Origin: a virus
Reading direction: 5' to 3' (one strand)
DNA length: 64,000 bases
Virus record (IMG/VR): IMGVR_UViG_3300037104_000756
Span: 34,163 to 98,162 of that record
Part shown: piece by piece, positions 28,940-33,931 of the stretch
Position numbering within the stretch: position 1 is the first letter of the stretch
Layout of the letters: each line of letters starts with the position of its first letter
The notes under the pieces: model-generated
The model's input: the letters and a program-made list of their open reading frames with translations, nothing else
Database searches by the model: none
What the model was told of the DNA's origin: nothing
Translations under genes and position numbers: made by a program

Positions 28940-29257
28940 ATGCATCCACGTTTAGATTTGGTAGATCAGATTATCCGCATTCTTGGCTGGCCCACACTGC
29001 TGGGTGGATTGGGCTGGGCGATCCGCAAATGGGATGACGGTCAACGTGACTTCAAAGTGATGGGGGAGAATACACGAATCGCGGTCGCAAAGATTGCTAC
29101 AGTTGAGACCGAGGTGCTGGCGATTAAAAACAACCACCTTGCTCATTTGCAGGAAGGTATCGTTGCATTGAGCGCAAGCAATGACAAAGCGGTTGAAATT
29201 TTGCAGACTATCAGTAAAGACATTGCGGTGTTGGTTGACCGCACACCACGCGCTTAA
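28940..29257 (+). CDS. N-terminal TM plus coiled-coil protein (holin-like, uncertain)
   Basis: ILGWPTLLGGLGWAI followed by NNHLAHL. Confidence 0.5.
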   Translation: MHPRLDLVDQIIRILGWPTLLGGLGWAIRKWDDGQRDFKVMGENTRIAVAKIATVETEVLAIKNNHLAHLQEGIVALSASNDKAVEILQTISKDIAVLVDRTPRA

Positions 29258-30633
29258 TCCAATCGGACTCCCCAGAACGCTCTTTTGCTAACAGGTGCAT
29301 CTGAGATCAGGCGGACGCAACTCGGGTCTGCCGTCACCACGAACCGCCTTCCTGTTGGAAATCTCACCTCGACTCTTAATGTTTGCGACAGAATATTCAT
29401 ACCCGTTATGGTGCCGCAGTAGTGAGCAGCGGGTCCTGTTAGAATCTCCACAAAATCTTGCGTGACTATCCTCGGGGCGGCAGGGCTATTATGATTTTGC
29501 ATCATCGTTTGAATCTCAGCATCAGGGATGGTGACTGCATGGAGAAAAACACCTTCGTCGGTATATATAGACGCCATTTCTGAGATGCCTCGAACCCGAG
29601 TTAGACCGCGAGTCAGGGTCGGTGATGTGCATCGCGCAAACAGATAATTGAACGCCAACTCTCCGTCATCGTTCGTAGGAGCAAAAATTTGCGCTGCTTG
29701 TTTTCCAAAGAGACGGCGTCCCTGGCTCTTGAGCATCGGAAAGATGAGGCTCATGCGGTGGTCAGACGATATTTCAAACATACACCAGGGCGTGTCTTGT
29801 AGCTTGCTTACGGCTCCAAACGATACCAGCGGGGAGTCATCACCAGGGGGTGCGGTAAATCGTAGCGTCTTGACACGCCGAGTTCGTGCGCGGCAGCGCT
29901 TACTGAGTCCTGCGCCTGTCAAGGACGCTTGATGCGTCAGGCTGCGGAGATACGCTCCAACAGCCACAGCCTTCACATCTTTGCTAGCCAACAGCGCGGT
30001 AATTGCTGGGCGGAATATTTTGCGGATCGCGGGAATCGGCGCTCCAACCGCTTTAGCGACCAGGGCATAGTTCTGACTGATGGCATACATCAGGATTAAT
30101 TGCGTCAGGCTGCCATACGGTGTTTCATCCACGCCTGCTTTTGTGATGATGGGACCGAGGACGAGACCTGTTGGCGCGGTACCGAGGAGAATCATGGACC
30201 CGAGAGTCTGTTCGATGATGCGCAAGTTCTGCCAGATGCGAGTTTGAATCTGCCCATGCGCTTGGGCGATGAAACTTTGAGATTTTTCGAGTAGATAATA
30301 TTCGATGAACAGTTCTTGAAACTCAGCGCGCATTTTTGAGATTAAGGGGAACAGTTTCTCAGGGTATTCGCGCGCGAATGTTTTGAACCCAATCAGGCTG
30401 CTGTTTTCCGGCAGCGCTTCAGCGGATAGGAGTGAATCCGAATCTTGGTTGCGCTCAAAGGATACGACGCTGGCGGCATTTGTCACATGGTCCCAGTAGG
30501 AGTATCCAGCCTCAGAGACTGACCGATATGTTTTGGCTTTGGCTTTCTTCCACGCCGCTGCGTAGTCTGAATGGCTGATCACACCATACATTCGACTGCG
30601 CGCACCCCAAGATATTGTGACCTTATTCGACAT
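29254..30633 (-). CDS. Transcription factor: sigma70 region 4-like HTH + second HTH + NusG-like NGN and KOW domains
   Basis: LISKMRAEFQELFIEYYLLEKSQSFIAQAHGQIQTRIWQNLR; NYALVAKAVGAPIPAIRK; W...QIFAP...NYLFAR...VRGI...IPDAEI; DFVEILTGPAAHYCGTI...LRVEV..TGR. SD GAGGAG before the Met at 30633. Confidence 0.75.
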   Translation of the reverse strand: MSNKVTISWGARSRMYGVISHSDYAAAWKKAKAKTYRSVSEAGYSYWDHVTNAASVVSFERNQDSDSLLSAEALPENSSLIGFKTFAREYPEKLFPLISKMRAEFQELFIEYYLLEKSQSFIAQAHGQIQTRIWQNLRIIEQTLGSMILLGTAPTGLVLGPIITKAGVDETPYGSLTQLILMYAISQNYALVAKAVGAPIPAIRKIFRPAITALLASKDVKAVAVGAYLRSLTHQASLTGAGLSKRCRARTRRVKTLRFTAPPGDDSPLVSFGAVSKLQDTPWCMFEISSDHRMSLIFPMLKSQGRRLFGKQAAQIFAPTNDDGELAFNYLFARCTSPTLTRGLTRVRGISEMASIYTDEGVFLHAVTIPDAEIQTMMQNHNSPAAPRIVTQDFVEILTGPAAHYCGTITGMNILSQTLRVEVRFPTGRRFVVTADPSCVRLISDAPVSKRAFWGVRLD

Positions 30634-30967
30634 GCTTCTCCTCTGAAGGTGGTATTTCGACACGCGCTTTTATTTTTCGACGCCTATTGGCAATGCGGAC
30701 GTATCGACGGACAAGGATTTCAAACACGGCTCCATGGGCAAGTTCAGGCTCTGCAACATGAAGCATTTCATGCACAAGCGTGTGCCGCCATCCTCGGATG
30801 TCTTTATTCAAAACGATAATGGGGCGGGCGAACATAGTGCCGTCGTGTAGCGTGACACCACGGCAAGTGGGTATGGTTGCATCCTCGACTAAGACGATTG
30901 TCGCAGCAGGCAATCGTCCCAGCCAGATAAGGTGGTTAAGTCTCCGATACTCTTGCTGTGGGGTCAC
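30623..30967 (-). CDS. SprT-like zinc metallopeptidase
   Basis: Y..LN...W.G.LP...TLVHEMLHV...HG..F. Confidence 0.75.
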   Translation of the reverse strand: MTPQQEYRRLNHLIWLGRLPAATIVLVEDATIPTCRGVTLHDGTMFARPIIVLNKDIRGWRHTLVHEMLHVAEPELAHGAVFEILVRRYVRIANRRRKIKARVEIPPSEEKHVE

Positions 30968-31305
30968 CTGACCAATCTACCAGAAATTCTAATCCGCTGT
31001 CAACTCTTTTTGTTCCCAGCAATCATGCATAGTGTTGACGTACCCCTGCGTGACAAGGTCCCGCTCGAACACCGCGATCTCTTTTTGAGCGTGGATCAAC
31101 TGAATGTGGTACTGCGCCCAAGTGCTGCGGTGAATAGCGCGCGTATTCTCCGCAAAGTGGCGCTCGATGCCGTTCCGATATTGCTTAGGCTGTACATTCC
31201 CCGCGCAGCCCTGTTCGTCGAATCCCTGCTCATCCCTGACCGATAGGCGACCAGGGAGTTTGGGCGGGAATAGTTTTGATAGCAAGTGGCTGATCCATGC
31301 AGGCA

Positions 31306-31746
31306 TCATGGGGTCTCCTCTAGTTGGATGTTGAAAGTTGTTGATTCAAGATTGAAGAATATAACCGGGTAGACGAAAACGGCAGTCAGACCTTCACCCA
31401 GGTAGTCTAGTTGGTCCGCCGCAGCGGAGGAAAGGTCCAAGATACGATGTAGGCGAAGGTTGGGACCACGATCAGTAATGGTCACAACGACGGATTCGCC
31501 ATTCTTAATGTTTAACACCCTAAGCTCTGTGCCAAACGGAAAGTACCAACTGGCTGCGGTTAGCTTGTGACAATCAAAGCGCTGCCCGTTCGCCATCTTC
31601 CGACCTTGACGGTCCTGTCCATACCATGAAGCGGTACCCATATACTGCATTGTCGCGCGGTGCTTTATGGGTGCTGCAGACGTTGAGGGGGTCCACAGCA
31701 GGCTCGCTACGATCAGCAAACCGAAAACTCGTAGTATAGTCTGCAT
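31306..31746 (-). CDS. rlpA: RlpA-like lytic transglycosylase (DPBB domain), exported
   Basis: Signal peptide; GTASWYG..MANGQRFD..LTAA..PFGT.LRV.N..NG.SVVV.ITDRGP..RILDLS. Confidence 0.9.
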   Translation of the reverse strand: MQTILRVFGLLIVASLLWTPSTSAAPIKHRATMQYMGTASWYGQDRQGRKMANGQRFDCHKLTAASWYFPFGTELRVLNIKNGESVVVTITDRGPNLRLHRILDLSSAAADQLDYLGEGLTAVFVYPVIFFNLESTTFNIQLEETP

Positions 31747-31792: not shown

Positions 31793-32020
31793 TTATGCAG
31801 CCCTCCTGCGTGCTAGAGTTTTCCTGGCCTGCAGGATGTGTGCGCAGGCGGTACGCCGAAAGAGGAAGTGTTCGCAACTGCAAGCCCAGCTTCGACCTTG
31901 CTTCGTCACCGTGTGATTAACTCGACCAGGGCGCGAGCGGGATTGAATGGTGCCATACGCGATGACGCCCTTGCGGGGTGCGTCGGCGGTTTTTAGACTC
32001 AGGACTCTTGGTGTTTTCAT
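31793..32020 (-). CDS. SWIM zinc-finger protein
   Basis: S.SRPG..H.V...W.CSC..F......CAHI. Confidence 0.75.
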   Translation of the reverse strand: MKTPRVLSLKTADAPRKGVIAYGTIQSRSRPGRVNHTVTKQGRSWACSCEHFLFRRTACAHILQARKTLARRRAA

Positions 32021-32026
32021 GTTGAA

Positions 32027-32070
32027 AGTGTACCAATTCCCGACCCATCGGTCAAGGGTACGAAAGTACT
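32027..32070 (-). promoter_or_regulatory. sigma70 promoter with GTAC box (SWIM-RlpA-SprT-sigma4/NusG operon)
   Basis: AGTACTTTCGTACC-C-TTGACC-17-TACACT-6-ATG. Confidence 0.75.
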
Positions 32071-32113
32071 AATATTCAAGACTTTTCAATTCATAGATAT
32101 ACGAGGGATTTCG

Positions 32114-33477: not shown

Positions 33478-33900
33478 AGTCGAGTTTAAGATCGACACGG
33501 TGGAGGCAGAAATCGTGCCCCAAAAGCTGGTCGTGCAGTTAACACGCGCTGAGCGAGTTCCGTGACGCGAATAGGACGGCGACCTTAAATTACGTTCGTA
33601 TAAAGCCTATGGCTTCTCAGAAAGACGAGGGTTCGACTCCCTCCGAGTCCACCCTGCCACACAGCACGGATGTTCCGACGCCCAAAGGGCTGACGATCTA
33701 ACCACTGTGTGGTACGGTGGGCTCGACTCGGTTTCGATTTTTGAGATAGTGGTGGGGCTACTTCGAACCGTCCTGACAACGACGTTAAAAGAGATCAAAC
33801 CAATAAATGCGATGCCTAAAAAGCTAGCACAGGTGGTTATGTTCGCGCAGCGCCCTGCGGCATTCGTGCCCCAGGCACTCGCGGCATAGTCGCCGGGGGA
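33478..33900 (+). ncRNA. ssrA: Circularly permuted (two-piece) tmRNA
   Basis: T-arm GAGGG-TTCGACT-CCCTC and acceptor 3' strand CGAGTCC-ACC (33627-33653) lie upstream of the 5' strand GGGCTCG (33719), giving G3.U; tag frame 33809-33889 ends in ALAA*. Confidence 0.92.
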
Positions 33901-33931
33901 GGGAGCCCGAAAGGTTCTCTCCTTTCATTTT
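33896..33931 (+). terminator. Intrinsic terminator after the tmRNA
   Basis: GGAGGGAGCC-CGAAA-GGTTCTCTCC then TTTCATTTTT. Confidence 0.75.

Follow-up and report, generated by a model that had tools for sequence, protein, structure and literature searches.

A viral gene predicted to fuse a sigma region 4-like module to a NusG-like core, a candidate regulator of phage late transcription

The fusion gene and its predicted domains

The gene described here lies in a 64,000-nucleotide stretch of viral DNA (the window) that comprises bases 34163-98162 of the 98,162 bp contig IMGVR_UViG_3300037104_000756, which was recovered from a peat metagenome and which CheckV rates as 98% complete. It is on the minus strand, and its product of 459 amino acids (aa), here called the fusion protein, is predicted to carry two helix-turn-helix (HTH) domains, the first resembling region 4 of sigma factors (sigma4), in front of the NGN and KOW domains of NusG. 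The features of the gene are listed below, with window coordinates and, in brackets, the basis of each assignment.

29254-30633, minus strand: whole open reading frame (ORF) of the sigma4-like, HTH, NGN and KOW fusion protein, 459 aa plus stop (ORF call, homologues, model)
30391-30504, minus strand: low-confidence N-terminal region, residues 44-81, with the motif LLSAExLPENSS, in which S70 and E72 are invariant (alignment, model)
30181-30372, minus strand: sigma region 4-like HTH, residues 88-151, with recognition helix IQTRIWQNLRIIEQ (model)
29935-30168, minus strand: second, weaker HTH-type helical domain, residues 156-233, with the helix PAIRKIFRPAI (model)
29809-29934, minus strand: linker, residues 234-275, with an Arg-rich helix SKRCRARTRRVK and two short strands (LRFTAP, LVSF), leading into the NGN (model)
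29485-29808, minus strand: NusG N-terminal (NGN) fold, residues 276-383 (model, structure searches)
29299-29481, minus strand: KOW beta-barrel, residues 385-445 (model, sequence profile)

Judged by its relatives, the ORF is a real and conserved gene. The databases hold 151 homologues with 50-68% identity, all of them metagenomic and many on viral contigs of 96-100 kb, and a few sources label these homologues 'NusG'; a scan of genome contigs returned no cellular or prophage homologue. An alternative GTG start at 30663 would lengthen the protein to 469 aa, and the public gene call (P0002) begins at Met15 and gives 445 aa. We prefer the ATG start that gives 459 aa because the relatives conserve residues upstream of Met15, in a W..RRSYG motif.

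An AlphaFold2 model of the protein was built on 62 homologues and used for structure searches with Foldseek and with exhaustive VIA-align. The model had a mean predicted local distance difference test (pLDDT) score of 84.7 and a predicted template modelling (pTM) score of 0.73, and was confident from residue 80 on. Its C-terminal half resembled full-length NusG, Spt5 and RfaH (Foldseek E about 1e-5, probability 1.0, ~170 columns), and VIA-align resolved three domains, sigma4, NGN and KOW, with the N-terminal domain best matched by authentic sigma4 domains, of which several come from holoenzyme structures. The four segments that the original prediction had read from the letters alone (sigma4-like, second HTH, NGN and KOW) all fall on modelled domains, and the structural matches to sigma4 and to NGN/KOW that it had proposed as a check were found.

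In the model, then, the protein is a member of the NusG/Spt5 family at the level of the fold, with an NGN alpha/beta fold and a KOW barrel following it, and the region 4 HTH fold of the sigma-70 family is also present. Neither Pfam (E <= 10) nor PHROGs matched any family in the protein itself, and Pfam NusG (PF02357) was absent from the families listed for the 62 homologues. The sigma4 and NGN assignments therefore rest on predicted structure, and only the KOW also has significant support from sequence profiles: a profile that included the homologue from phage Tunturi_5 (see below) matched the KOW of T. thermophilus NusG with E 1.1e-4, in register with the A. aeolicus and E. coli proteins. Another profile search, this one with the NGN-KOW half, retrieved nothing beyond fragments of the fused family itself. 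In the ESM Atlas, Sigma70_r4 clusters scored 0.78 and NusG was matched by structure at TM 0.55, both under the reliability marks.

Within the sigma4-like recognition helix residues Q130, W134, L137, R138 and E141 are invariant, and the polar residues are so across all 62 homologues, which fits one conserved nucleic-acid target. A complex prediction that paired the HTH module (residues 82-255) with residues 820-1065 of the E. coli beta flap scored 0.11 against a mark of 0.32, which counts neither for nor against flap binding. When the second domain was searched by itself with Foldseek, neither PDB nor BFVD gave a match at E <= 0.001, and the hits were generic HTH proteins only. BLASTP of the first HTH against the second found no similarity, and so gave no evidence for an internal duplication as the source of the two.

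The model contains no sigma2-like domain, and Sigma70_r2 had no Pfam match anywhere in the 98-kb genome at E <= 1; the fusion protein is therefore not a sigma factor. Sigma70_r4 and Sigma70_r4_2 likewise had no Pfam match anywhere in the genome, and a scan of all ORFs for the D-x-D-G-D catalytic motif of double-psi-barrel RNA polymerases (RNAPs) found none that was RNAP-like. Since neither a sigma match nor an RNAP catalytic motif was found, the late promoters must be served by host RNAP together with a phage factor, and the fusion protein is the only sigma-related candidate found in the genome. A Pfam search for T7-type RNAP also gave no match, but its control went undetected as well, which makes that search uninformative.

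The N-terminal module alone, and the two halves apart

A profile of residues 82-255, run against 1.8 billion representatives, retrieved 177 proteins; ~12 clusters have the fused form, and about 150 clusters consist of stand-alone proteins with 240-280 aa. In the reverse direction, a profile of the stand-alone family matched the fusion gene over residues 44-255 (E 4.8e-42), and this was the sole copy in the 98-kb genome. All of the stand-alone members scanned are annotated 'hypothetical'. On the strength of these profile matches, residues 44-255 belong to a large, uncharacterised family of stand-alone phage proteins of ~250 aa.

Members of this family carry traces of both antiterminator and sigma sequences. 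Phage_antitermQ (PF06530) matched the first HTH weakly in half of the 50 members scanned (25/50, best E 2.4e-6), although only P0136 exceeded the cut-off (26.9 bits against 26); the second HTH of P0136 has a weak Sigma70_r4 match (E 0.091). Sigma70_r4 was found in 18 of the 50 (best E 2.1e-6) and Sigma70_r4_2 in 16 (best E 1.5e-7). PF06530 also matched 13 of the 62 fusion homologues weakly, and the module of the fusion protein itself at E 0.2 and 12 bits, which is under the gathering score and covers profile positions 61-109 only; the part shared with PF06530 is the HTH alone. PDB profile searches with the stand-alone family did not return Q21, and their sigma4/HTH matches were marginal. In the single viral locus that was retrieved, a stand-alone member lies just upstream of genes for a glycosyltransferase, an HNH nuclease, the large terminase (TerL) and the portal, which is where late-gene regulators are usually encoded.

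Only one column is invariant throughout the stand-alone family, a Glu that belongs to an N-terminal S-x-E-T motif. The LLSAExLPENSS motif of the fusion protein is homologous to it, and the fused proteins retain S70-x-E72 within a region modelled at low confidence; S-x-E may be a short docking motif. The same HTH module also occurs in other fusions (P0186/P0198): an XRE-type HTH_31 domain is the partner in one (434 aa), and in the other (591 aa) the module follows a LAGLIDADG domain.

Among cultured phages, the collection searched held a homologue of the module in Tunturi_5 only, a jumbo phage of the soil acidobacterium Tunturiibacter psychrotolerans X4BP1. Its gp346 (244 aa; PP885688.1 301753-302487) is a stand-alone HTH-module protein that matched the profile with E 1.2e-26 and is 31% identical to the fusion protein over residues 104-250, and the first ~190 residues of its gp25 (344 aa, annotated 'transcription antiterminator') are homologous to the NGN-KOW half (E 4.8e-20, hhalign probability 98.7). 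These two proteins are direct homologues of the two halves of the fusion protein, although they are encoded in separate genes about 32 kb apart on the circular Tunturi_5 genome rather than in a single gene as in the present phage, and although gp25 has a further C-terminal extension of ~150 aa. From these homologies, the fusion joins two modules that are encoded apart in another lineage. When two genes stand apart in one lineage and are fused in another, this is a classic sign of joint function, which suggests that the gp346 and gp25 modules work together. gp346 is annotated as an 'exonuclease' yet has a tandem sigma4-like HTH (Phage_antitermQ E 0.0013, Sigma70_r4_2 E 0.31), and this label is probably a misannotation.

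Promoter elements, operon and genome

Two repeated elements, RGACT-N8-YATA and GTAC-N4-GTAC, mark two classes of promoter in this genome. These elements and the genes of the operon that ends with the fusion gene are as follows.

32079-32095, plus strand: RGACT-N8-YATA element, divergent from the operon promoter (motif/matrix search)
6677, 10106, 13038, 14980, 16409, 21876, 28300, 42879 and 60897, plus strand: starts of further RGACT-N8-YATA elements (motif/matrix search)
28277, 32058, 36414, 40454, 41740 and 42624: GTAC-N4-GTAC sites, as window positions (motif count)
32027-32069, minus strand: operon promoter, TTGACC-17-TACACT, with an AGTAC-N4-GTACC palindrome 2 nt upstream of the -35 and the ATG 6 nt past the -10 (sequence)
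31793-32020, minus strand: SWIM zinc-finger gene (operon)
31306-31746, minus strand: RlpA-like double-psi beta-barrel (DPBB) gene (operon)
30989-31309, minus strand: 106-aa gene upstream of the fusion gene, syntenic in relatives (synteny)
30974-31003, minus strand: internal sigma70-like promoter, TTGACA-18-TAGATT, right before the 114-aa gene (sequence)
30623-30967, minus strand: 114-aa gene with an HEMLH motif, upstream of the fusion gene (ORF, synteny)

The RGACT-N8-YATA pattern occurs eight times in the window against 0.78 expected, always on the plus strand. A matrix search extended this to 14 sites in the genome, all on the plus strand and just upstream of plus-strand structural genes, among them those for the portal, the SU10-type adaptor, an ice-binding-like fibre protein and a 1636-aa ORF; none of the sites has a -35. 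The pattern is conserved: it is present in each of the six related genomes checked, and five relatives have 40 copies on the main strand, which is always the strand opposite to the fusion gene, and one on the other (a control pattern gave 6 and 6). It is at background level in Tunturi_5 and in the phage Tunturi_3, which has no homologue of the fusion protein. A logo of 33 sites from three genomes reads aTTTaAGACTTtt..t.cCATAgnTgnA, again without a -35 and with no good sigma70 -10. The original prediction had taken this element for a class of promoter at the end of a two-tier cascade and had proposed a search for it in the genomes of homologues; going by its enrichment, strand bias and conservation, the element is real.

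The window holds six copies of GTAC-N4-GTAC where 0.35 would be expected, and each of the five related genomes has 5-14 against 0-3 for a control pattern. The spacer of the element is conserved and asymmetric (GAAA/TTTC). The copy at 32058-32069 is the one 2 nt upstream of the -35 of the sigma70-type promoter that precedes the operon.

This minus-strand unit runs in the order SWIM, RlpA-like DPBB, 106-aa gene, 114-aa gene and fusion gene. It had been predicted that the fusion gene was the last of an operon with a GTAC-box promoter. Its position and that promoter hold at the level of sequence, although a single promoter is too simple a picture, because the internal promoter at 31003-30974 may also drive the fusion gene. 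At both minus-strand promoters the -10 hexamer is 6 nt ahead of the start codon (genes starting at 32020 and 30967), a distance that suggests leaderless mRNAs. In related viral loci the fusion gene runs opposite to the flanking tail genes, and homologues of the 106-aa and 114-aa genes precede it in 6 of 7 of them. The 114-aa protein, which has the HEMLH motif, had no Pfam or PHROG match, and looks SprT-like in its layout. The RlpA-like protein, of lytic-transglycosylase type, has a signal-like N-terminus, and the SWIM gene is small.

Tailed-phage genes were recognised in the genome, namely those for an SU10-type portal and adaptor, RecA, a UvrD-type helicase, a primase-polymerase, ribonucleotide reductase and a chaperonin. 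The portal has one distant relative among cultured phages, in the Acidobacteria podophage Tunturi_3 (22.5% identity), and an acidobacterial host is therefore plausible. The contig ends share an identical overlap of 184 bp (1-184 and 97979-98162) and the source classes the genome as linear; the genome is probably complete, either as a circular assembly or with a short terminal repeat. A permuted (two-piece) transfer-messenger RNA (tmRNA) gene lies at 33548-33889 on the plus strand, matching Rfam RF04321 (tmRNA_permuted) with 67.2 bits against a gathering score of 47. ARAGORN also calls a permuted tmRNA, with the tag AMPKKLAQVVMFAQRPAAFVPQALAA, and a strong terminator (33895-33925) stands right behind it.

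Proposed role in late transcription and its alternatives

We propose that the fusion protein is a specialised NusG paralogue that is loaded on DNA and acts on late transcription by host RNAP, as an activator or an antiterminator. This reading, for which we infer DNA binding, the target, RNAP binding and the effect on termination, is in our judgement evenly poised between right and wrong; that the protein in some way switches on the phage late genes is probable. Host sigma-A holoenzyme would make the fusion protein from the sigma70-type early/middle promoters, and its HTH module (residues 44-255) would then bind a duplex element at phage promoters, the likeliest target being the invariant (A)AGACTT box that lies 8 bp upstream of the -10-like YATA in the -35-less late promoters. 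Established structures place NGN domains on the beta-prime clamp helices, by the upstream fork, which is the site of sigma region 2, and an N-terminal extension of the NGN would therefore point at the upstream duplex. Binding of the module would thereby set the NGN beside the clamp helices and activate the late promoters, after which the factor would stay on the elongation complex and provide NusG-type processivity or antitermination through the structural genes, including ORFs of 1636 and 2034 aa. The tandem sigma region 4-type HTH in front of the NGN-KOW would, in other words, be a built-in recruitment device.

We favour this reading because the GACT box is in the position of a promoter spacer, as are the elements of lambda Q, whose binding element lies in the spacer, and of GafZ. 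The original prediction of a promoter-loaded late activator or antiterminator is in this way partly supported: it gains circumstantial support from the similarity to Q21 and Sigma70_r4, from the stand-alone member that lies ahead of terminase and portal, and from the split halves in Tunturi_5. Several points weigh against it. A clamp-bound NGN excludes sigma region 2, so that activation and NGN engagement could not be simultaneous and a purely hypothetical hand-over step would have to come between them. All the genomes that have both the RGACT motif and the fusion protein form one clade, so that finding the two together does not count as independent evidence. A copy of the promoter precedes each late gene cluster and no convincing strong terminators were seen inside the late operons, so the need for processive antitermination is not evident. 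Finally, GTAC-N4-GTAC is equally conserved across the clade and could be the true target of the module.

Were that last point correct, the tandem HTH would bind GTAC-N4-GTAC at the minus-strand sigma70-type promoters, including its own, and would autoregulate or time the early/middle operons, and a different factor, as yet unrecognised, would have to serve the late RGACT promoters. The enrichment of the element in the window and in relatives, its place directly upstream of the promoter of the fusion gene's operon, and its two half-sites, which could suit two HTH domains in one chain, speak for this. We nevertheless think it unlikely, as these promoters have a near-consensus -35 and -10 and need no activator, a palindromic site points to a symmetric dimer more than to a pair of dissimilar HTH domains, there is little reason for a factor bound near -43 to carry a NusG module, and it is the late promoters that are left without a recognisable factor. 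Quite improbable, in our view, is a general substitute for NusG, which would displace the host protein and blunt Rho on all phage transcripts, with the HTHs serving protein-protein or RNA contacts. The NGN-KOW fold is clear, the Arg-rich helix (residues 245-255) could bind RNA and homologues already bear the label 'NusG' in some sources; however, of the two halves the N-terminal module is better conserved and more widely distributed, is found alone in many phages and carries sigma4/Q-type signals that are typical of DNA-binding regulators.

The protein could also mimic sigma, with its sigma4-like domain on the beta-flap tip and its NGN on the beta-prime clamp helices, so that both main sigma docking sites are filled. 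It would then act either as a sigma competitor that shuts off host transcription or as a specificity subunit for RGACT-N8-YATA without sigma-A. It is established structural knowledge that sigma region 4 binds the flap-tip helix and that sigma region 2 and the NGN compete for the clamp helices. The top structural matches are true sigma4 domains, several from holoenzymes, neither a Sigma70_r2 match nor an RNAP catalytic motif was detected in the phage, and its late promoters fit neither the sigma70 -10 nor the -35. Moreover, the AAGACTT box resembles the -35 consensus of extracytoplasmic function (ECF) sigma factors, GGAACTT. Against such mimicry, we know of no NGN domain that melts promoter DNA, the order of sigma4 before NGN and the 8-bp spacing from box to YATA misfit the geometry of a flap-bound sigma4, the invariant polar recognition helix suggests DNA binding and not flap binding only, and the stand-alone relatives keep the module without an NGN. 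We regard it as doubtful. A NusG-derived promoter-specificity subunit is very improbable; here the HTHs would read AAGACTT, the NGN would replace sigma region 2 and hold the non-template YATARNT, and host core would initiate without sigma and keep the factor in elongation. Should it prove true, such a sigma-free subunit would be a direct evolutionary and mechanistic bridge from initiation to elongation factors.

The proposal of a DNA-loaded NusG paralogue can be set against what is known of others. RfaH, LoaP, UpxY, TaA and ActX have an NGN and KOW core in the same order as the fusion protein, and such specialised paralogues serve only a few long operons, carried on accessory or mobile DNA, with recruitment close to the promoter. 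They differ in size and in recruitment, being about 160-190 aa long and recruited via the NGN itself (the non-template hairpin of ops) or via leader elements, whereas the fusion protein has ~250 extra N-terminal residues with two sigma4-type HTHs, and no Pfam NusG match. RfaH has an autoinhibited alpha-helical KOW, whereas the KOW of the fusion protein is a beta-barrel in AlphaFold2, a prediction that is unable to exclude fold switching.

Lambdoid Q proteins, above all the Q21 family (PF06530), and the Q21-like BrrG are promoter-loaded processive late antiterminators that have a sigma region 4 (R4)-like HTH and a DNA site at or inside the promoter, and relatives of the N-terminal module match the Q21 family weakly, over the ~50 profile positions of the HTH. 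Unlike the fusion protein, Q proteins form a nozzle in the RNA exit channel and have no NGN or KOW. Q systems also use a sigma-dependent promoter-proximal pause; no such pause element was identified in the present phage, and conserved boxes are present in the spacer of its late promoters. A sigma-R4-like fold is shared by Q21, the Q21-like BrrG and GafZ/GafA (bioRxiv preprint 10.1101/2024.11.20.624540). GafZ is an antiterminator that has a sigma-like HTH, a DNA site located between the -35 and the -10, and NusA, NusG and NusE as partners; GafZ/GafY of the Caulobacter gene transfer agent (GTA) and the fused GafA of Rhodobacter combine two-tier activation with antitermination and occur in split and fused versions by lineage (PMC11150451). 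By these descriptions, GafZ recruits host NusG, whereas the present protein carries a NusG-like module fused to it. The Gaf proteins, unlike the present phage, serve domesticated GTAs of alphaproteobacteria.

In T4 late transcription (gp55, gp33 and gp45), host core is redirected to promoters without a -35 by small phage proteins that take the sigma docking sites. The T4 late promoter has an 8-bp -10-type element, TATAAATA, to be compared with YATARNTR in the present phage, which has the GACT box upstream in addition and in which no gp55-like sigma2 protein or clamp dependence was found. T4 gp33, unlike the predicted HTH module, is not a DNA binder.

Our search of the full-text literature, which left domain-architecture databases aside, found no description of a sigma4-NusG fusion or of a NusG with a fused promoter-binding domain; within that literature the combination of sigma4/HTH and NusG has not been described before. 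NusG is, to our knowledge, the only transcription factor conserved in all life, and the recruitment of its specialised paralogues to particular operons is under active study. A naturally occurring NusG with a fused sigma4/Q-type DNA-binding domain would be a new solution to recruitment, and would physically link two classes of factor that compete for the same site on RNAP. It would also provide a testable function for about 150 clusters of unannotated stand-alone phage proteins and likewise for the gene pair of Tunturi_5, the regulation of Acidobacteria phages being almost unknown. Together with two well-defined promoter classes, the fusion protein would make a compact system for an early-to-late switch that uses only host RNAP.

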